Shown: positions 1,179 through 39,229 of the stretch, piece by piece
How positions within the stretch are numbered: position 1 is the stretch's first letter
Layout: every line of letters starts with the position of its first letter
Assembly (NCBI GenBank): GCA_963704775.1
Contig: CAVPHR010000003.1
Span: forward strand, 14,050 to 78,049
Direction of reading: 5' to 3'
From: an uncultured Chloroflexia bacterium
Lineage (GTDB): Bacteria > Chloroflexota > Limnocylindria > Limnocylindrales > CSP1-4
Length of the DNA stretch: 64,000 bases
Notes under the pieces: generated by a model
What the model was told of the DNA's origin: nothing
The model's database searches: none
Seen by the model: only the letters and a program-made list of their open reading frames with translations
Translations under genes and position numbers: made by a program

Positions 1179-1550
1179 ATGGCACGCATCGCCGGCGTCG
1201 ACATCCCGCGTGAGAAGCGCGTCGAAGTCGCCCTGACCTACATCTTCGGGATCGGCCTGCCCACCAGCGAGAAGATTCTCGCCCAGACCAACATCAATCC
1301 CGACACGCGGGTTCGCGACCTGACCGAAGAGCAGGTCAACCGGCTCCGCGAGCTCATCGACCGGCGCTACAAGGTGGAGGGCGACCTCCGCCGCGAAGTG
1401 GCGCTGAACATCAAGCGCCTGATCGAGATCGGATCGTACCGGGGCGTTCGCCATCGGCGGAACCTGCCAGTGCGCGGCCAGCGAACCAAGACGAACGCTC
1501 GCCAGCGTCGCGGTCCGAAGAAGACCGTCGGCGTCCGGCGCAAGAAGTGA
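1179..1550 (+). CDS. rpsM: 30S ribosomal protein S13
   Basis: [10 protein letters not shown]...[10 protein letters not shown]. Confidence 0.99.
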
Positions 1551-1567
1551 CGAGGGACTGACCAGGC

Positions 1568-1963
1568 ATGGCGGAACGCAAGAAGGCGGTCAAGCAGCGT
1601 CGGCGTGAGAAGAAGAACGTGCCCCAGGGCCACGTCCACATCCAGGCCACGTTCAACAACACGATCATCACGATCACGGACCTCAACGGGGCCGTCATCA
1701 GCTGGGGCTCGGCCGGCGTCGCCGGGTTCAAGGGCTCCCGCAAGAGCACCCCGTACGCGGCCGCCCTTTCGGCCGACGGCGCAGCCCGCCGCGCGATGGA
1801 GCACGGCATGCGCCAGGTCGAGGTCTACGTCAAGGGCCCGGGCGCGGGCCGCGAACAGGCGATCCGCTCGCTCCAGGCCGCCGGCCTCGAGGTCAGCGCC
1901 ATCACTGATGTCACGCCCATCCCGCACAACGGCTGCCGCCCGCCCAAGCGGCGTCGAGTCTAG
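1568..1963 (+). CDS. rpsK: 30S ribosomal protein S11
   Basis: [31 protein letters not shown]. Confidence 0.99.
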
Positions 1964-1978
1964 AGCCCCAGAGGACCC

Positions 1979-2605
1979 ATGGCCCGTTACACCGCATCCG
2001 TTTGCCGCCTGTGCCGGCGGGAGGGCGCCAAGCTCTTCCTGAAGGGCACCCGCTGCTATACCAAGAAGTGCGCATTCGAGCGCCGGCCGACACCGCCAGG
2101 CCAGCACGGCGTCCGTCGCCGCAAGGTCGGTGAGTACGGGCTGCAGCTGCGCGAGAAGCAGAAGGTCCGCCGCACGTACGGCGTGCTGGAGCGTCAGTTC
2201 CGCAACTACTTCGTCGACGCGTCCAACCACCCCGGCGTGACCGGCGAGAACCTGCTCCGCTCGCTCGAGACGCGGCTCGACAACGTCGTCTACCGGCTCG
2301 GCTTCGCGACATCGCGCGCTCAGGCCCGCCAGCTCGTCGCCCACGGCCACTTCGCCGTCAACGGCCGCCCGACCAACATCGCCTCGTACCGGATGAAGCC
2401 CGGCGACAAGGTCGAGGTCCGCGAGTCGCACCGGGCCCGCGAGCCATTCAAGATCGCCAAGGAGACGCTCCGGAACCACCAGGCCCCAGAGTGGCTGAGC
2501 ATCGACGCCGCCAACCTGTCCGGAACCGTCGTGACCCCGCCGAACCGCGACCAGATGCCGCTCGACCTCAACGAGCAGCTCGTGGTCGAGTACTACTCGA
2601 GGTAA
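1979..2605 (+). CDS. rpsD: 30S ribosomal protein S4 (zinc-binding type)
   Basis: [35 protein letters not shown]. Confidence 0.99.
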
Positions 2606-30758: not shown

Positions 30759-31953
30759 ATGACGACGCCAGTGCGTGCAGCCCGCACGGCGCTCCTCGTG
30801 GCGGCCGCGGGGGCCGCGACCGTCACCGGGGCCCGGGCGGGCGGCCGGGCCCTCGTCGGGCGGGCCGAGCGACGCCTCTGCCTGACCGTCGAGCCGCCGC
30901 CGTACGACGCGTCGGAGCGGGCCCGCGCGCTGCACCGCGGGCTGCTGGTGGCCGACCTCCACGCCGACTCCCTGCTGTGGGGCCGCGACCTGCTGCAGCG
31001 GTCCGGGCAGGGCCAGGTCGACGTGCCGCGCCTCATCGAGGGCAACGTCGCGCTCCAGGTCCTCGCCGCGAGCACGAAGTCGCCGCGCCACCTCAACATC
31101 GAGCGCAACGACGACCGCAGCGACGACGTCATCCTGCTCGCGCTCGCCGGGGGCTGGCCGCGGGCCACGTGGCGGAGCCTTCTCGCGCGGGCGCTGCACA
31201 TGGCGCGAGCGGGCGGACGCCATGGCGCGCCGATCCGAGGGTCGGTTCACGCTGATCCGCTCGCGCGCCGACCTCGACGCGTACGTCGCGCGGCGGACCG
31301 ACGAGCCGGCGATCACGGCGGGCCTGCTCGCGATCGAGGGCGCGCACGCGCTCGACGACGACCCGGCCAACGTCGAGGTCGTCGCCGACGCCGGCTTCCG
31401 GATGATGTCGCCGAGCCACTTCTTCGACAACGCGTTCGGCGGGTCCGCCCACGGCGTCGAGAAGGGCGGCCTGACCCGGGCGGGCCGCGAGATGATCCGC
31501 CGGATGGAGGCGCGCGGGATGGTGCTCGACCTCGCGCACGCCTCGGGGCCGACGATCGACGAGGTCGTGGCGATGTCGCGGCGGCCGGTCGTCGTCTCGC
31601 ACACCGGCGTCCGCGGCACCTGCGACAACGCGCGCAACCTCTCCGACGAGCAGCTCCGCGGGGTCGCCGCGACGGGCGGGCTGGTCGGGATCGGGTTCTG
31701 GCCGACCGCCTGCGGCGGCGACGATGCCGCGTCGATCGCCCGCTCGATCCGCTACGCCATCGGGCGTCGCCGGGGCCGAGCACGTGGCGCTCGGCTCCGA
31801 CTTCGACGGCGCGGTCCCGGTGCCGTTCGACGCGAGCGGGATGGTGCGGCTCACCGATGCGCTGCTGGACGCGGGCCTCGACGACGACCGATCGCGAAGG
31901 TCATGGGCGGGAACGCGTTCCGCCTCCTCGCGGACACGCTGCCGGCAGCCTGA
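30759..31953 (+). CDS. Membrane-type dipeptidase (M19), frameshifted
   Basis: DLHADSL, VDVPRLIEG, IEGAH, DLAHAS, SHTG..RNLSD, GSDFDG, MGGN. Confidence 0.9.
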
Positions 31954-31977
31954 GCCGGACCCCCGGTCGAGGTCCGG

Positions 31978-33237
31978 TCAGACGAGCTCCGCGATCAGCG
32001 CCGCGGCACGCGCCGCGCCGTCCGAGGCGACCGGGCGATAGGCGATCGGCCGGTCGATCTCGTGGGCGATGGCCTCGGCGATCGCGTCCGGATCCGAGGT
32101 CGCGTAGTCCATCCGCCGGCCGCCGCCGTAGCGGTCGAGCCGGTGGGCGACGTGGCGGTTCTGCTCGAAGTGGTTGCGCGAGCGGGAAGTACAGGAACGG
32201 CCGGCGGCCCGGCCACGAGCTCCATCGTCGTCGTCAGGCCGCCCTGGACGACGGCGAGGTCCGCGGCCACGAGGTGCCGGTAGAGGTCCGGGCACGAAGG
32301 CGCGGACCTCGACGCCCGCGGGCGCGTCGAGCAGCGCCGGGTCGATCCGCGGCCCGGCCACGGCGATCATGCGCAGGCCGGGGACCCGTCGGGCGGCATC
32401 GGGATAGCTCGCGATGACCCGCCGGAGCAAGGCCTCGCCGACGCCGGAGCCGCCGACCGTGACGATGACCACGCGCTCGTCGTCGTGGTAGCCGAGCTCC
32501 CGGCGGAGCGCCTCGCGGCCCTCGATCAGCGGCGTCGGGTCGAACCCGGTCACGTAGCCGGAGAACGCGTAGTGCCGCTCGGTCCAGTCGCGGATGGCGG
32601 GCAGGCCGGGCCCGAAGTCGTCGGGCACGATGTCGTCGGGGTCGCCGACGAAGATCGCCCGGTCGCGGATCCGCGGGAAGCGCGCGACGTGCTCGATCAT
32701 CTCGGCGTTGTAGTCGGCCGTCAGGAACGCCTCGCGCTCGCCGCCAGCGGGCATCGGCAGCCAGCCGACGAAGTCGGTCATCCAGGCGAAGGCCGTGCGC
32801 TTGAGCTCCGGGTTCTCGTGGAGGTAGTAGTCGACGTCCCACGCCTCGTCGCCGATGACGAGGTCGTACTCGCCGTGCTCGACGACGTCGTGGAAGACCA
32901 TGAAGTTGGCGACGAGGATCTCGTCCATGCGCCGGATCGCCTGGAAGGCGTTGAGGTCGTGGCCGGCGGACTCGGAGGTGATGTGCGCCGACTCGCTCGC
33001 GAGCCAGGCGCTCACCGGGTGGATCCGCTCGCCGTGCGCCTCGAGGACGCTGGTCACCGGGTGCTGGGCGAGCCAGTCGATCTCGAGGTCGGGATGGAGC
33101 TTGCGCAGCTCGGCGGCGATGGCGACGTCGCGCTGGGCGTGGCCGAGCCCGATCGGCGAGGAGATGTAGAGGGCCCGTCGCGGGCGGGACAGCGCACGGG
33201 TCCAGGTCGTCTTCGAGGCGGTGGTCGAGGCGTTCAT
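31978..33237 (-). CDS. GT-B fold glycosyltransferase
   Basis: SSPIGLGHAQRD, TVGGSGVG, VVQGGLTTTMEL, HFEQ. Confidence 0.88.
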   Translation of the reverse strand: MNASTTASKTTWTRALSRPRRALYISSPIGLGHAQRDVAIAAELRKLHPDLEIDWLAQHPVTSVLEAHGERIHPVSAWLASESAHITSESAGHDLNAFQAIRRMDEILVANFMVFHDVVEHGEYDLVIGDEAWDVDYYLHENPELKRTAFAWMTDFVGWLPMPAGGEREAFLTADYNAEMIEHVARFPRIRDRAIFVGDPDDIVPDDFGPGLPAIRDWTERHYAFSGYVTGFDPTPLIEGREALRRELGYHDDERVVIVTVGGSGVGEALLRRVIASYPDAARRVPGLRMIAVAGPRIDPALLDAPAGVEVRAFVPGPLPAPRGRGPRRRPGRPDDDDGARGRAAGRSCTSRSRNHFEQNRHVAHRLDRYGGGRRMDYATSDPDAIAEAIAHEIDRPIAYRPVASDGAARAAALIAELV

Positions 33238-34167
33238 CGATCGATCCTCTCGTCTAATGACCGGACGAAGTCGCGGATCAGCAGGTTGGCGAGGACCGGG
33301 TGCCGGCCCGGGATCATGTGGTCGGCGCCTTCGACGATCACCAGCGGCGCGCCGGTGAGCTCCGCGAGTCGATGCGCCTTGGCGATCGGCTGGCAGTGAT
33401 CGTCCGTGCCGTGGACGAGGAGCATCGGGCAGGTGACCTGGCGGCAGATCGCCTCGACCGCCTCGAGGTCCAGGGTGAAGGCCGCCTCGTGCTCCGCGAG
33501 CATGACGTCGACGGAGCCGTCGACCGCCCAACCGGCCGCATCGTCGATGAGCTTCGTCGAATGGGGCTCCGTGGCCATCTGCTCGAAGAAGAACCGCGCG
33601 AAACCCGGGTAGTCGCGGCGCCAGTAGTGCCGGTTGAACTTCGCCCAGCCCTCGTCGGTCGGCAGCTCGTCGTCGAACCTCACGTCCAGGTAGTGCTGAT
33701 GCGTCCGACTCAGGCGCGGCACGCCGACGCGAACGCGACGATGCCCGCGACGCGCTCCGGGCGTTCGGCCGCGAGACGGATCGCCCGCCAGACGCCATCG
33801 ACGCAGAGCCCGACGAGGACGGCACGCGCCGTCGCCGTGGCGTCCATCACCGCTTCGATGTCCTCGACGAACCGCTCGTCCGCGTACGCAGCAGGGTCGG
33901 TCGGCCGGTCCGAGCGGCCGTTGCCGCGCCCGTCGAACGTGACGACGCGGTAGGACCGGCTCAGGTAGGGGATCTGGGCCTTCCACTGCCGCGAGTGGAC
34001 GATCGGCGCCGAGGGGAGGAGCACGAGCGTCGGCTCGCCCGCCCCGAAGACGTCGTACGCGAGGCGGACGCCGTCGGCGGACGTCGCGAACCCGGACGCG
34101 TCGGGCCGACGCGCGACGCCGGACTCCAGTCGCGTCGGACCGATCGGTCGGTGCGGTCGTCGATCAC
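33234..34167 (-). CDS. Alpha/beta hydrolase with Cys at the nucleophile elbow (frameshifted)
   Basis: FDGRGNGRSDRP, VGLCVDG, HGTDD, EGADH. Confidence 0.87.
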
Positions 34168-35099
34168 GTCCCGGTCCCCAGGCTCCGGACGAAGTCGCGG
34201 ATCAGCAGGTTCACCTTCACCGGATCGCGACCGAGCGGCGCGTGGCCGGCGCCCTCGAGCATCACCAGCCGTGCCCCGAGGAGCTTGGCGAGTCGCCGTC
34301 CGACCTTGGGGCTGCTGATCAGGTCGCGGTCGCCGTGGATGACCAGGGTCGGGCACGTGACCCGGCGGATGACGCGCACGGGCGGGCGCCTCGTCCGTTC
34401 CCGCCCAGCCGTCCGGCGGGTCCATGTACGGGGCGTACTCAGCGGCGATGATGACCTCGGGGTCGGTCTCGAGCGCCCAGCCGACCATGTCCTCGATCGG
34501 CTTCGTGGAGTGCGGCTCGTTGAAGACCTGCTCGAAGAAGAACTCGGTGAACCCCGGCCAGTCCGCGCGCCAGTGGTTGGCGTTGTAGCGGTCCCAGCCC
34601 TCGTAGCGGTCCAGCTCGCGATCGAAATCGGGCCCGGGTCCGGCGCCGGCCGGGGCGTCGAGGCGATGCTGGCGCCGATCAGGATGGCGCCCAGCACGCG
34701 CTCCGGGTGGGTCGCGGCGACCTGGAGCGCATAGCCCGCGCCCATCGAGAGGCCGGCCACGACCGCCTGCTCCGTGCCGCTCGCGTCGAGCACGGCGATC
34801 GCGTCGCCGACGAAGGCCGAGCCAGCGTAGGCCGCCGTGTCGAGCGGCCGGTCGGAGCGGCCGTTGCCGCGACCGTCGAACGTGACCACCCGGAAGTGGC
34901 GGGCGAGGTCGTGGATCTGGCTCTTCCAGTGGCGCGAGTGGACGATCGACCACGTCGGCATCAGCAGGATCGTCGGCGAGCCGTCGCCGTAGCGCTCCCA
35001 GAAGACGCGGACCCGTCGCGCTCGACGAATCCGGTCGCGTCCGGGTAGCGGGCGCGCGTCTGCTCGTGCCGGGTCGCCGGCGTCGGCGAGCGTGGTCAC
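34164..35099 (-). CDS. Alpha/beta hydrolase (Ser nucleophile), frameshifted
   Basis: FDGRGNGRSDRP, GLSMG, HGDRD, EGAGH. Confidence 0.88.
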   Translation of the reverse strand: MTTLADAGDPARADARPLPGRDRIRRARRVRVFWERYGDGSPTILLMPTWSIVHSRHWKSQIHDLARHFRVVTFDGRGNGRSDRPLDTAAYAGSAFVGDAIAVLDASGTEQAVVAGLSMGAGYALQVAATHPERVLGAILIGASIASTPRPAPDPGPISIASWTATRAGTATTPTTGARTGRGSPSSSSSRSSTSRTPRSRSRTWSAGRSRPTPRSSSPLSTPRTWTRRTAGRERTRRPPVRVIRRVTCPTLVIHGDRDLISSPKVGRRLAKLLGARLVMLEGAGHAPLGRDPVKVNLLIRDFVRSLGTGT

Positions 35100-35740
35100 G
35101 CCGGGCGCTCCTCGAGCATCCGGATCACCAGGCCGATCTTGCGCAGCGCCGAGCGGGCGGGGACGACCGAATCCGGCATCCCGAGCAGGATCAGCGCCTC
35201 GGCGCCCGAGGAACGGCATGCCCATCAGGGCCGCGACCTCGGCCGGCGTGAACGGCGCCGAGCCCGCCGAGCCGGTGCGCCTCGCGCTCGGCGACCTCGG
35301 CGAGCAGGCGGTACCAGCCCGTCAGGTCCTCGCGGACCGCGGCCGCGACCTCGGCGTCGGACCAGCCGGCGGCGATCATCTCCTGGAGGATCCGGACGTA
35401 GCCGGACTCGAGGTCCTCGTCGAGGAAGTCGCAGGCCCGCTCCCATTGCTCCCAGAGCGGCTCGGGCGCCGCGAACATCGCGCGCTGGCGCTCGAGGAGC
35501 CGGGCGTTCTCCGCCTCGAGCACCGCGAGGATGAGCTGCTGCTTGCTGCCGAAGTGGTAGTGGATCTGGCTGAGCGGGACGCCCGGCCGCCTCGGCGACG
35601 CGCCGGGTCGAGAGGTTCGCGTAGCCGTCGGCGAGCAGGCACGCGCGGGCGGCGGCGAGGATCGCCGCGCGGGTGTCGGCCGTCGCCTGATCCCGGCGCT
35701 CGGCGCGGGTCTGCGGTCGTGTCGCCGTGTCGTCCGCCAC
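35096..35740 (-). CDS. TetR/AcrR family regulator (frameshifted)
   Basis: TRAAILAAARACLLADGYANLSTRRVAEAAGVPLSQIHYHFGSK. Confidence 0.92.
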
Positions 35741-35764
35741 GCGTCGAGCATACGACCCAGCGCC

Positions 35765-36534
35765 TCACGCGGCGATCGCGTAGACGGCGGCCAGGATGAG
35801 CAGCGACGCCCAGCGGCCGGGTCAGGCGCCGTCCCCACGGCAGGTTCTTCTCGACCGCCGTCAGGCCGCCGAGCGCGAGCATCGCCGGTGAGGCTGCCGA
35901 GGCCGACCCCGAACATCACGAGCATCAGCGACCAGCAGCAGCCGACGCAGAACGCGCCGTGGGCGATGCCCATCGCGAGCGCCTCGAGCCGCTCGGACGT
36001 GCCGCGCCAGCGGTTCATGACGAACCCGAGCGGGCTGCGGCACTCATCGAGGCAGCGGTCGCGGAGCGGGCTGAACTGCCACAGGCCGGCGGCCAGCAGC
36101 GTCGCGCCGATGATCAGCTGGGGATGCTCGGCGAGCCAGGGCAGCGCGTCGACGGCGGCGTGGATGCCGCGATCGGCGACCCATGCGGCCGAGCCCGAAC
36201 GCCCCCCAGACGACGAGGTAGCCGACGAGCAGCAGGCGCGACGAGCACGCCCGGCCGTCGCCGCCGGCCGACGAGCGCCCCGAAGGTGACGACCAGCGGC
36301 ACGCTCGACGGCAGCATCATCGCGACGATCATCAGCATCCAGCCGAGCGAGAAGAGCGCCGCCTCGAGCGGCAGCGGGCCGCCGTCGCCGCCGTCGTGGT
36401 GGAGGTAGTGCCCGTACGGCGAGCCCTCCCAGAGCCACAGCGCGAGCCAGGCCGCGCACCGCGAGCGCGACGAGCGACCCGGCGAGGATCGCCCGGTCGC
36501 GTCGCGGGGCGCGGAGGTGGGCGGGGGCGAACAT
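35765..36534 (-). CDS. DUF2182 predicted metal-binding integral membrane protein (frameshifted)
   Basis: MIVAMMLPS, WQFSPLRDRCLDECRSP, GAFCVGCCWSLM, AVEKNLPWG. Confidence 0.85.
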
Positions 36535-36560
36535 CGGTCAGCGCTCCGAGTCGCCGCCGC

Positions 36561-37171
36561 TCAGGCGGCGAAGCGGAAGTGGCCCTGCAGGGCGTTGTGG
36601 CCCTGCGAGGTCCACGCTCGGGATGCCGTGGCGGCTGCCGTCCGCGTGTACTGGCTCGCCTTGGCCGCGTAGACGGGCGAGCCCGGGATCGTGCTGAACA
36701 CGGTCTCGGCGAGCGTCGTCGGCTTGCCGGTCGCGCCGACGAACGGCGCCATCTCGGCCTCGACGAGCGATCCGATCGTCAGCCGGCCCTTGCCGCCGTC
36801 GACGGTGAAGGCGATCGGGGCGCGCTCGACGGCGACGACCTCGCCGATCAGGCCGGCGAGGTCGGCGACGGCGCCGCCGAGCTGTCCGGTGAACAGCTGC
36901 GGAGCACGCCGCCTCCTGCTCGGCCGGTCGCGCGATCGTCGACGAACACGACGGCCTTCCACGACTTCGGGATGAGGATGTTCTTGGGGATGTGGGCCGA
37001 GACGGCCATCGTCAGCCCGCTGACGTCGACGCCCTCGATCGAGCCCTTCTCGATGCCCCAGGCGATCGTCGTGTCGCAGGTCTTGTAGTCGGGGTCCTCG
37101 CCGACCCAGCACGGGCACAGCACGTTGCAGGTGCAGACCTCCAGCAGCCGGCCCTCGATCTCGTACGCCAT
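36561..37171 (-). CDS. DUF1326 Cys-rich putative metal-binding protein (frameshifted)
   Basis: [34 protein letters not shown]. Confidence 0.87.
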
Positions 37172-37199
37172 GGCTCCGGTCCCTCCTGCATGATCGCTC

Positions 37200-37236
37200 A
37201 TTCGGTCGTTCGACCGAATCGGTCGGTCGACCGAAT
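37200..37236. promoter_or_regulatory. Two tandem palindromic operators TCGGTCG-N2-CGACCGA
   Basis: ATTCGGTCG-TT-CGACCGAAT (37200-37219) and AATCGGTCG-GT-CGACCGAAT (37217-37236). Confidence 0.75.
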
Positions 37237-37261
37237 CTACATCAGGATGGTCCGATGTCAA
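37234..37261 (-). promoter_or_regulatory. Sigma70 promoter of the DUF1326 locus
   Basis: Minus strand TTGACA-16 nt-TAGATT, abutting the operators. Confidence 0.7.
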
Positions 37262-37360
37262 GACCCTTTCTGGACCGGTCGGGCGGTTCGCTCTGGTAGC
37301 ATCGGCGGGTCAGCATCCCGCGCGGCCCTGCCAAGGTCGCGTACCAGCGGAGACCCCCTC

Positions 37361-38773
37361 GTGACCTCCCCGACCGATCCCGACGACGTCGCGCCCGCCG
37401 TCGCGGACCTCGACACGATCGTCTCGCTCTCGAAGCGGCGCGGCTTCATCTTCCCGTCGTCCGAGATCTACGGCGGCATCAACGCGGTCTGGGACTACGG
37501 GCCCCTCGGCGTCGAGCTCAAGAACAACGTCAAGCGCGCCTGGTGGCGGGCGATGGTCCAGGAGCGCGACGACATCGTCGGGCTCGACGCCGGGATCCTC
37601 ATGCACCCGCAGGTCTGGGTGACGTCCGGCCACGTCGGCTCGTTCAGCGACCCGCTGGTCGAGTGCGCGACCGACCACCGCCGCTTCCGGCTCGACGAGC
37701 TGCCCGGCGCCGAGCACCTGACGGCGACCGAGCTGCAGGACCCCGGCGATCGTCGAGCGGCTCGGGCTGCGCTGCCCGGACGACGGCGGCCCGCTGTCCG
37801 CGCCGCGCCGGTTCAACCTGATGTTCAAGACGTTCATGGGCCCGGTCGAGGAGGACGCGTCGGTCATCTACCTCCGCCCCGAGACGGCCCAGGGCTCGTA
37901 CGTCAACTTCAAGAACGTCCAGCAGTCGTCGCGCAAGAAGCTGCCGTTCGGGATCGCCCAGATCGGCAAGTCGTTCCGCAACGAGATCAGCCCGGGCAAC
38001 TTCGTCTTCCGGATGCGCGAGTTCGAGCAGATGGAGATGCAGTACTTCGTCCGCCCCGAGGCGGAGGCGGCCGCCGCGTTCGAGGAGTGGCTGCCCGCGG
38101 CGCCGCGCCTGGTACGAGCGCTACGGCGTCACGCCCGAGCGGCTGCGCCTGCGCGAGCACGCGCCCGACGAGCTCGCCCACTACGCGAAGAAGGCGATCG
38201 ACGTCGAGTACCGCTTCCCGTTCGGCTGGAAGGAGCTCGAGGGCGTCCACAACCGCGGCGACTTCGACCTGTCGCGCCACTCCGAGGCGTCGGGCGAGAA
38301 CCTCGAGTACTTCGACCAGGCGACCGACGAGCACGTCATCCCGTGGATCGTCGAGACGGCGGCCGGCGCCGACCGGGCGGCGTTCACGTTCCTCATCGAC
38401 GCCTACCGCGAGGAGGAGGTCCGCGGCGAGACCCGGGTCGTCCTCGGCGCTCCACCCGGACCTCGCGCCGTACAAGGTCGCGGTCCTGCCGCTGCTCAAG
38501 AAGCGGCCCGAGATCGTCGAGCTGTGCCACCGCATCAAGGCCGACCTGAAGCGCCACACGATGGCCGTCTACGACGACACGGCCGCGATCGGCAAGCTCT
38601 ACCGCCGCCAGGACGAGATCGGGACGCCGTGGTGCGTGACGGTCGACGTCGACTCGCTCGAGGACGGCGCGGTCACGGTCCGCGACCGCGACTCGATGAC
38701 CCAGGAGCGGGTGCCGGTCGAGGGCGTGACGCGGCTCATCCTCGACCGGCTCGAGGCGGCCCACGCGGGGTAG
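37361..38773 (+). CDS. glyQS: Glycine--tRNA ligase, homodimeric type (frameshifted)
   Basis: [56 protein letters not shown]. Confidence 0.96.
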
Positions 38774-38806
38774 GGCGGCGACCTCGGACGTCCGGACGAC
38801 CGGCCG

Positions 38807-39229
38807 TCACGCCTCCTGGGGTTCCTTCGGCGGCGTCACGACCGTGAGCGGCAGCGGGACCGCGCCGCGCAATCGACTCGGGACGTCCTGACCGATCCAG
38901 CGCGAGAGACCGGCGGGGAGCGTCGAGAGGATGATCTCGTCGGCTTCGATGGTCCGCAGCGCGTCGCGCGCCGCCTGGACCGGATCGTGGTCGCCGATCT
39001 CCCCGGTCGCCTCGGCATGCCGTTCGCGGAGCCAGCCGAGGCTGGCGTCCAATCGCTCACGCGCGGATTCGAGGGCCTCGCCTTCCTCCCAGGTCAGTCT
39101 GTGGGAGACCGGCGTGGCCGGCACGACGACGTGGAAGCGTGCCTGCCCATCGGCGAGGCGCTCGCTGATCTCGTGCCGGAGCTCCTCGCCCGCGAGGGTC
39201 TGATTCGCGATGATGAGATACGTCCGCAT
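38807..39229 (-). CDS. USP-like (adenine nucleotide alpha-hydrolase fold) protein
   Basis: YLIIANQTLAG, FHVVVPA, GEIGDHDP, DEIILSTLP..SRW. Confidence 0.75.
   Translation of the reverse strand: MRTYLIIANQTLAGEELRHEISERLADGQARFHVVVPATPVSHRLTWEEGEALESARERLDASLGWLRERHAEATGEIGDHDPVQAARDALRTIEADEIILSTLPAGLSRWIGQDVPSRLRGAVPLPLTVVTPPKEPQEA

Follow-up and report, generated by a model that had tools for sequence, protein, structure and literature searches.

We analyzed a 64,000-nucleotide stretch of DNA (hereafter the window) from an uncultured Chloroflexia bacterium of the order Limnocylindrales (GenBank assembly GCA_963704775.1, contig CAVPHR010000003.1, positions 14,050 to 78,049), focusing on a minus-strand locus at window positions 31978-37261 that potentially encodes a TetR-controlled hydrolase-glycosyltransferase system. 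The locus comprises six co-oriented genes. In the order of reading, they encode a soluble DUF1326 protein (36561-37171; ATG at 37171, TGA at 36563-36561), an integral membrane protein of the DUF2182/PpoB2 family (35765-36534; ATG at 36534, TGA at 35767-35765), a TetR-family regulator (35096-35740; probable GTG start at 35740, TGA at 35098-35096), two paralogous alpha/beta hydrolases, termed hyd1 (34164-35099) and hyd2 (33234-34167), each with a GTG start, and a GT-B, family 1-like (GT1-like) glycosyltransferase, termed GT (31978-33237; ATG start, TGA at 31980-31978). The two hydrolases differ at the nucleophile position, which is occupied by Ser in hyd1 (GLSMG) and by Cys in hyd2 (GLCVDG). The TetR/hyd1 and hyd1/hyd2 junctions are 4-bp stop/start overlaps of the form GTGA (35099-35096 and 34167-34164), and hyd2 and GT overlap by ATGA (33237-33234). 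The gaps are 26 nt between the DUF1326 and DUF2182 genes and approximately 24 nt between the DUF2182 and TetR genes. The G+C content of the window is about 72%, and a codon-position GC plot gave a minus-strand coding signal throughout 31978-37240 with phase shifts every few hundred bases. The locus is flanked by glyS and by a gene for an M19-family dipeptidase, with which the GT stop at 31978 is convergent.

A single promoter-like site was detected in the 31700-37500 region, where shuffled sequences gave an expectation of 0.1. It is of the sigma-70 type and occupies 37234-37261 of the minus strand, with the -35 element TTGACA at 37261-37256, a 16-nt spacer, and the -10 element TAGATT at 37239-37234. 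When the upstream regions of related loci are aligned, the CTTGACA motif proves conserved, as does the DUF1326 start codon at 37171, which is kept in 20 of them. Two tandem palindromic operators (37200-37237, minus strand) overlap the -10 element and the start of the leader; the first reads GATTCGGTCG-AC-CGACCGATTC (37237-37216) and the second ATTCGGTCG-AA-CGACCGAAT (37219-37200). The 3.38-Mb genome contains only two exact copies of their core, TCGGTCGNNCGACCGA, and both are at this promoter (37201 and 37218 in the window); the core is conserved 5' of DUF1326 in related loci. In the window, there is no second operator in front of the TetR gene. A preliminary description of this locus, made from its sequence, had listed the six co-oriented genes in these families, the 4-bp overlaps joining the last four of them, and the TTGACA promoter covered by two palindromes; each of these features was recovered here, with the family assignments resting on Pfam, orthologues, and the GT-B fold.

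None of the six genes is a continuous open reading frame in this assembly, a point absent from the preliminary description. Comparison of the reading frames with intact orthologues by tblastn revealed at least 12 frame switches across the six genes within 5.2 kb: at least one in DUF1326, at least three in DUF2182, three in TetR, two in hyd1, at least one in hyd2, and two in GT. The DUF1326 gene is broken by a switch near 36900 and an indel near 36606, the DUF2182 gene is spread over at least three frames and the TetR gene over three, and the GT gene makes an internal out-and-back excursion at approximately 32206-32335. If real, this density of switches would mean that the locus is decayed and non-functional and that the six genes are pseudogenes. 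The placement of the indels would agree with such decay, as the homopolymer signature was absent and at 11 of the 12 listed indel sites the run length is 1-3 bases, which matches the background. We nevertheless consider decay very improbable. The glyS gene (37300-38773, plus strand), the sole match to glycyl-tRNA synthetase in the genome, is likewise broken by three switches into four abutting pieces in three frames, and these pieces are 85-94% identical to the gene of a relative. The dipeptidase gene (approximately 30760-31953) changes frame too. The genome itself (G000; 3.38 Mb) is assembled into only 6 contigs, yet its marker completeness is 58%. Short-read contigs from soil (three DNA runs) are one base shorter than the window at 37747, 38097, and 38448, the three glyS switches, and, inside the operon, at 32206, 35582, 35760, 35804, and 36606. 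This comparison covered 31900-38900 and gave 42 further indel places beyond those named; its contigs, which are 90-99% alike, derive from relatives that need not be of the same strain. The codon-position GC bias is retained in every gene piece, and intact versions of every operon gene exist in two related genomes, G009 and G015. Because the sole glyS gene is broken too, the completeness is 58%, and the soil contigs lack the bases in question, the frameshifts are most likely assembly indels rather than marks of pseudogenes. Single-base insertions, in most cases a surplus C or G that is not part of a homopolymer, seem to affect the assembly as a whole. Related soil contigs also show single-base indels in the leader and operator region, at 37183, 37197, and 37218, and the operator spacing given above may be one base off.

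The two pieces of the DUF1326 protein in the window matched PF07040 with 87 bits (profile positions 1-72) and 64.1 bits (positions 80-177), and the uninterrupted orthologue from G015 scored 177.5 bits. This is the only DUF1326 gene in G000. Its Cys cluster, CxCxxxCPC, and one more Cys are invariant among 24 relatives, and the protein is essentially soluble. The DUF2182 pieces matched PF09948 with 111.4 and 29 bits, and an intact orthologue, which has at least five hydrophobic segments, with 211.7 bits. The motifs AMMLPS, CLDEC, and CVGCCW are present and invariant among 22 relatives. All motifs quoted in the preliminary description (CxCxxxCPC, AMMLPS, CxxxC, and CVGCCW) were found. An AlphaFold2 model of a DUF1326 orthologue (pLDDT 87.9) had no match in the PDB at E ≤ 0.001 by Foldseek (best E 8e-3, TM-score 0.26), and PDB sequence searches with either DUF protein gave nothing meaningful. 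Predictions of a DUF2182-DUF1326 complex returned an interface score (ipSAE) of 0.00 in both runs, which were made without controls and are evidence neither for nor against a complex. Among the longer DUF1326 relatives, 22 of 43 matched both PF07040 and PF09948, and these were set aside as fusions, as nearly all are single-member clusters that may represent read-through across indels. A 454-aa protein (P0164), encoded on a 1785-nt contig, joins 35 N-terminal residues of DUF1326 to an SBP56-like remainder and was likewise rejected as the product of a probably chimeric contig; the remainder resembles an SBP56-like protein of low-GC style with a signal-peptide-like stretch.

The window fragment of the TetR regulator scored 22.9 bits on TetR_N (PF00440), just below the cut-off of 24, with a frameshift splitting the domain; the intact orthologue from G009 scored 45.5 bits. 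Both hydrolases matched Abhydrolase_1, hyd1 with 87.4 bits and hyd2 with 49 bits, and the two paralogues are 46% identical in a related locus (L020). Their closest matches are esterases (5egn, E 2.5e-29), RsbQ, perhydrolases, and EstT/EstX. DUF1326, DUF2182, and the hydrolases could be confirmed in Pfam, the check that the preliminary description had proposed, and TetR and GT through their intact orthologues.

For GT, the broken frames of the window gave no Pfam match, and the intact orthologue matched Glyco_tran_28_C (PF04101) with 28.7 bits against a cut-off of 22. By sequence, only the C-terminal donor domain of GT matches anything. The motifs GLGH, GG-x-T-x-x-E, and FEQ, which we take to be the catalytic and donor-binding motifs, are invariant in the alignment. 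The AlphaFold2 model (pLDDT 83.7, pTM 0.81) has alternating strands and helices through both halves, as in GT-B enzymes, and a PDB search with it gave 451 matches at E ≤ 0.001, with GT1 enzymes at the top. The top folds were OleI/OleD, the kitacinnamycin glycosyltransferase, CalG1-4, SpnG/SpnP, SnogD, LanGT2, and YjiC/YojK (E 1e-15 to 1e-12, TM-score 0.5-0.6, 13-19% identity), with MurG and sterol glucosyltransferase ranking lower. On the MurG model TIGR01133, GT scored 27.7 bits against a cut-off of 250.25. The earlier proposal of a GT-B enzyme in a small-molecule modification system is consistent with the modeled fold, whose nearest solved structures are small-molecule GT1 enzymes. We also assessed the idea of a selenosugar synthase, in which a glycosyltransferase is paired with a 'selenium-binding' partner; it was dropped for want of support, as a PDB profile search with the GT alignment gave nine hits, all of them chains of the UGT/YjiC, MurG, and CalG types.

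The distribution of the locus was assessed within the genus and across uncultured lineages. In the same genus, it occurs in 5 of 17 genomes. G007, G011, and G012 have it in colinear form (78-81% nucleotide identity), G015 has it with a single hydrolase, and in the G009 version TetR and the first hydrolase are separated by a Lumazine_bd_2 (NTF2-like) gene. A protein search with GT gave at least 8000 metagenome matches, the 120 listed being 86-100% identical. Of 597 candidate stretches in species-representative genomes, 572 were confirmed, and the best 80 of these were analyzed by tblastn with the cluster proteins. These 80 GT-anchored loci carry the labels Chloroflexota/Limnocylindrales (the closest), Gaiellaceae, Solirubrobacterales, Thermoleophilia, Acidimicrobiia, Eremiobacterota, Dormibacterota, and Ktedonobacterales, and GT is at least 69% identical throughout.

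A hydrolase lies directly 5' of GT in all 80 loci. Among the 75 in which the nucleophile could be read, 50 have a single hydrolase, which carries Ser; 18 have two, a distal Ser type and a GT-proximal Cys type; and 7 have other arrangements. The Cys is conserved in the GT-proximal paralogue. Fusions of the Cys-type hydrolase with GT recur in several independent clusters: 5 of the 120 listed homologues (P0002, P0006, P0014, P0022, and P0029; 637-726 aa) are fused and come from three sources, and an uninterrupted 740-aa frame at the end of contig 2 of G009 (locus L011, 4943-7165, minus strand) joins the Cys-type hydrolase to GT. Three actinobacterial loci (L070, L076, and L088) show a tandem duplication in which the hydrolase-GT pair is repeated, the second GT being 60-74% identical to the query. 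No characterized member of the hydrolase-GT pair was found in our searches.

The genes upstream of this pair vary by lineage. Of the Chloroflexota-labelled loci, all 22 that extend at least 2.8 kb upstream have a TetR gene there, as do 28 of 40 loci labelled 'Actino/other'. Where the upstream sequence reaches 5 kb or more, the DUF1326/DUF2182 pair was found in 19 of 20 Chloroflexota-labelled loci and in 2 of 36 'Actino/other' loci; both Eremiobacterota loci and the single Ktedonobacterales locus have it too. The sole Chloroflexota exception (L016, from a Limnocylindrales-labelled genome) has, in the position of the DUF pair, a gene for a protein with an Rv2258c-like winged helix-turn-helix domain followed by a class I methyltransferase domain (1324-2508, plus strand), with the same promoter and operators and beside glyS. 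In actinobacterial clusters, the first gene often encodes an SBP56 protein (PF05694, 601.5 bits), which scores 132 bits on the NCBIfam model for methanethiol oxidase MtoX against a cut-off of 650. In total, 26 loci have the DUF pair (one partial, at a contig edge), 11 SBP56, 13 the methyltransferase, and 30 none of these, and in none of the 80 do two different modules occur together. No SBP56 match was found in G000, at its 58% marker completeness. A GT tree of 78 rows, from which L040 and L041 were excluded since their GT match is not one long piece, requires at least nine changes to explain the three module labels. The DUF rows fall in three separate places, the methyltransferase rows are nested in a DUF clade, and one SBP56 row groups as sister to a methyltransferase row, with an SH-aLRT support of 100. 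Relatives share labels, and these counts show that swapping occurs, not its rate. The preliminary description had placed the DUF pair in one pathway with the other four genes; across the 80 loci, the pair lies outside the conserved core and is one of three alternative accessory modules.

Operator cores with at most one mismatch were counted in an interval that ran, in each locus, from 300 nt before the first cluster gene to the start of GT. A type 1 operator, TCGGTCG-NN-CGACCGA, was present in 26 of 26 loci that have a TetR at least 55% identical to that of the window and are not at a contig edge; four further loci with such a TetR start at a contig edge and have no type 1 operator there. In 27 loci with a divergent TetR, 22 have a type 2 operator, TAGTC-N4-GACTA, one has type 1, and four have neither. 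Outside the counted intervals, 966 kb of sequence gave 5 matches to type 1 and 7 to type 2. The operator precedes whichever gene comes first, be it DUF1326, SBP56, the methyltransferase, an NTF2-like gene, or TetR: type 1 stands before DUF1326, or before TetR or a hydrolase (L060, L063, L065, L067, L070, and L092), and type 2 before DUF1326 (L071, L074, L075, and L089), SBP56 (7 loci), NTF2, or TetR. In L090, the DUF pair lies downstream of GT with a type 2 operator of its own. Because the operator stands before whichever gene is first and the displaced pair of L090 keeps its own site, the DUF pair appears to belong to the regulon of the cluster, and this placement is the best evidence for it.

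These data, together with the short gaps and overlaps and the single promoter-like site, suggest that the six genes behave as one TetR-controlled unit. This part of the preliminary description therefore stands, as does its expectation that the two blocks co-occur elsewhere: the DUF pair was found with the TetR-hydrolase-GT block in 21 Chloroflexota-labelled loci and in Eremiobacterota, Gaiellaceae, and Ktedonobacterales loci, under an operator that covaries with TetR. The statement that no function is known for the pair does not stand, and the pair is not part of the conserved core. Contigs from one RNA run (X19; 90-99% alike) span parts of the locus, including a piece over the hyd2/GT junction (33170-33335), and their presence in an RNA library shows neither transcription nor strand nor a single transcript. 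Elsewhere in G000, the operator core with one mismatch has 13 sites, compared to 2 for the reversed control. Three such sites were inspected as secondary operators and none was informative; their positions are 5' of a gene for a small secreted protein, within coding sequence, and in a larger palindrome. The last is a near-perfect 26-bp palindrome, GGTCATCGGTCA-TT-CGACCGATGACC (L100, approximately 2535-2562; G000 contig 6, approximately 270035-270062), situated between clpX and a large regulator-like open reading frame, and may be bound by a different TetR-like protein.

Both DUF families have previously been linked to functions. PpoB2 of Marinomonas transfers copper to a tyrosinase and is reported as the first COG5486 protein with an assigned role (PMC2855505), and Pfam now names PF09948 after it, as a copper chaperone. 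In Roseobacters, DmdE (DUF2182) and DmdF (DUF1326) are reported to be always adjacent and to be required for the demethylation of dimethylsulfoniopropionate (DMSP) and for growth on it; deletion of dmdA partly rescues a dmdE mutant, purified DmdF consumes H2O2, and the authors describe the actinomycete-type homologues as phylogenetically distinct and not near DMSP genes (PMC12992908). In view of these reports, the lack of any assigned function claimed by the preliminary description is outdated. The locus resembles the Roseobacter system in that the same two families are adjacent and, as reported there, co-transcribed under a repressor (PMC12992908), and the SBP56 gene in the same slot of sister clusters fits a context of methanethiol and H2O2 (PMC12992908; PMC5739008). 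It differs in having DUF1326 before DUF2182 and a hydrolase and a GT as partners; in place of linkage to dmdA/acuI/dinB and DmdR, it has TetR, hydrolases, and GT, between glyS and the M19 dipeptidase gene. With PpoB2 of Marinomonas mediterranea, it shares the PF09948 match and a multi-pass membrane protein with Cys/Met motifs, whereas PpoB2 works with the tyrosinase PpoB1 (PMC2855505) and the protein of the locus has a DUF1326 partner. No tyrosinase is encoded by the six genes or their two neighbors, the genome as a whole not having been searched for one, and the operon has no other known cuproenzyme. SBP56 is described as a methanethiol oxidase that depends on copper and forms H2S, formaldehyde, and H2O2 (PMC5739008, PMC13603461). 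The S-methyltransferases MddM1 and MddM2, of 204-210 aa and the UbiG/UbiE type, provide a general precedent for the detoxification of H2S and methanethiol by soluble class I methyltransferases (PMC12904073). They were ruled out as the family of the cluster methyltransferase, which has 355 aa and the Rv2258c-like domain arrangement.

A further comparison is with TetR-repressed operons for the inactivation of small molecules, which combine GT1 glycosyltransferases for macrolides or other natural products (OleD/OleI and MGT) with alpha/beta-fold esterases (EstT/EstX). Likenesses are the GT-B fold, with OleI/OleD as the best structural matches, the Ser-type hydrolase with EstT/EstX among its matches, and a TetR gene with palindromic operators at the promoter. 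However, identities are 13-19%, scores are far below the cut-offs, no macrolide link emerged, the GT of the locus is conserved at 69% or more across phyla, and the operon carries DUF1326/DUF2182.

We propose that the locus is a single self-repressed, ligand-inducible operon, which would hydrolyze and then glycosylate a small molecule with the help of a sulfur- or metal-handling accessory module. TetR dimers would sit on the two tandem palindromes covering the -10 element and leader, and a small-molecule ligand would release them, so that the six genes would be transcribed together. The conserved core would consist of a Ser-type, esterase- or lactonase-like hydrolase, cleaving an ester, lactone, or thioester bond of the small molecule, and a GT1-like enzyme adding a sugar from a nucleoside diphosphate donor to the hydrolysis product. 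In this chemistry of unmasking followed by glycosylation, the Cys-type second hydrolase would be an optional extra beside GT that is fused to it in some genomes. The DUF pair would be a first-slot accessory module coping with a pathway-linked problem of reactive sulfur, peroxide, or metal; we infer this role from the related lineages, whose operons have an SBP56-family thiol oxidase or an S-adenosylmethionine (SAM)-dependent methyltransferase in that slot. We give this proposal about an even chance. Several observations count against it. The hydrolases are below every NCBIfam cut-off, and their matches to named enzymes fall far short (49-52 bits against 450 for the macrolide esterase EstT, 41-48 against 600 for EstX, and 65-99.6 against 255.85 for the enol-lactonase PcaD), as does the GT score on the macrolide glycosyltransferase (MGT) model TIGR01426 (30.8 bits against 260). 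Thirteen uncut loci have no TetR, and 30 of 80 have no accessory module, many of the latter being cut by contig ends; the cluster thus requires neither its regulator nor the DUF pair. Because kin have gene order in common, the locus counts overstate independence. The genes of the window are themselves frameshifted as assembled. Finally, GT is unusually conserved, and identities of at least 69% across phyla are no better explained by a xenobiotic than by a conserved endogenous substrate.

The latter point leads to the main rival, in which the operon is biosynthetic: the alpha/beta protein would be an acyltransferase or lipid-forming enzyme and GT would glycosylate its product, giving an endogenous glycolipid or glycoside. 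In the rhamnolipid pair RhlA/RhlB, an alpha/beta-fold protein is directly followed by a GT-B glycosyltransferase, and the logic of the locus would be similar; the likeness concerns the gene pairing as generally known rather than a sequence comparison, and the regulation and accessory genes differ. The invariable hydrolase-GT adjacency with recurrent fusions, the 69-78% identity of GT to rows outside the Chloroflexota, the Cys at the nucleophile position of the GT-proximal paralogue, as is familiar from acyl-transferring alpha/beta enzymes, and the presence of MurG, sterol glucosyltransferase, and monogalactosyldiacylglycerol synthase among the weaker fold and sequence matches all agree with this explanation. 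On the other hand, the top structural neighbors of GT are natural-product GT1 enzymes rather than lipid glycosyltransferases, the cluster contains no acyl-carrier, fatty-acid, or sugar-nucleotide genes, and the universal partner of GT is the Ser-type hydrolase and not the Cys type, with the single Ser enzyme being the predominant arrangement. Self-repressed TetR operons are, moreover, more typical of catabolic or detoxification genes. We regard a biosynthetic role as rather unlikely. Somewhat less probable still is that the promoter is shared by two unrelated modules, the DUF pair being a unit of copper or redox homeostasis and TetR-hydrolase-GT a separate one. The pair is absent from 34 of the 36 'Actino/other' loci with at least 5 kb upstream, and in the accounts of PpoB2 and DmdEF, the former acts with a tyrosinase and the latter with DMSP genes, neither with a glycosyltransferase (PMC2855505, PMC12992908). 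Against such independence, an operator covarying with TetR precedes the pair in five lineage groups and in two operator types, the window has no second operator before TetR, the DUF pair of L090 is displaced yet keeps an operator copy, and the slot is refilled by SBP56 or the methyltransferase with no locus holding two modules.

Within the proposed operon, that the DUF pair acts on thiols, sulfide, or peroxide is a concrete hypothesis rather than a result. In its most specific form, DUF1326/DUF2182 would be a stand-alone module disposing of reactive thiols, sulfide, selenols, or the linked peroxide, interchangeable with the copper-dependent thiol oxidase SBP56 and with a SAM-dependent S-methyltransferase, and the hydrolase-GT core would process a sulfur-containing ester or thioester that releases a thiol. 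We consider this specific form unlikely as a whole.

The hydrolase-GT pair described here is uncharacterized and widespread across uncultured soil lineages, and its defined operators and natural fusions make the system directly testable. The exchange of DUF1326/DUF2182 with SBP56 or a methyltransferase under one operator provides a comparative clue to the function of two families for which PpoB2 and DmdEF have been the only two, scattered genetic anchors so far. If true, disposal of thiols or peroxide would be the first general function for these two widespread DUF families, and it would explain why dmdE and dmdF mutants do not survive the demethylation of DMSP that produces methanethiol.

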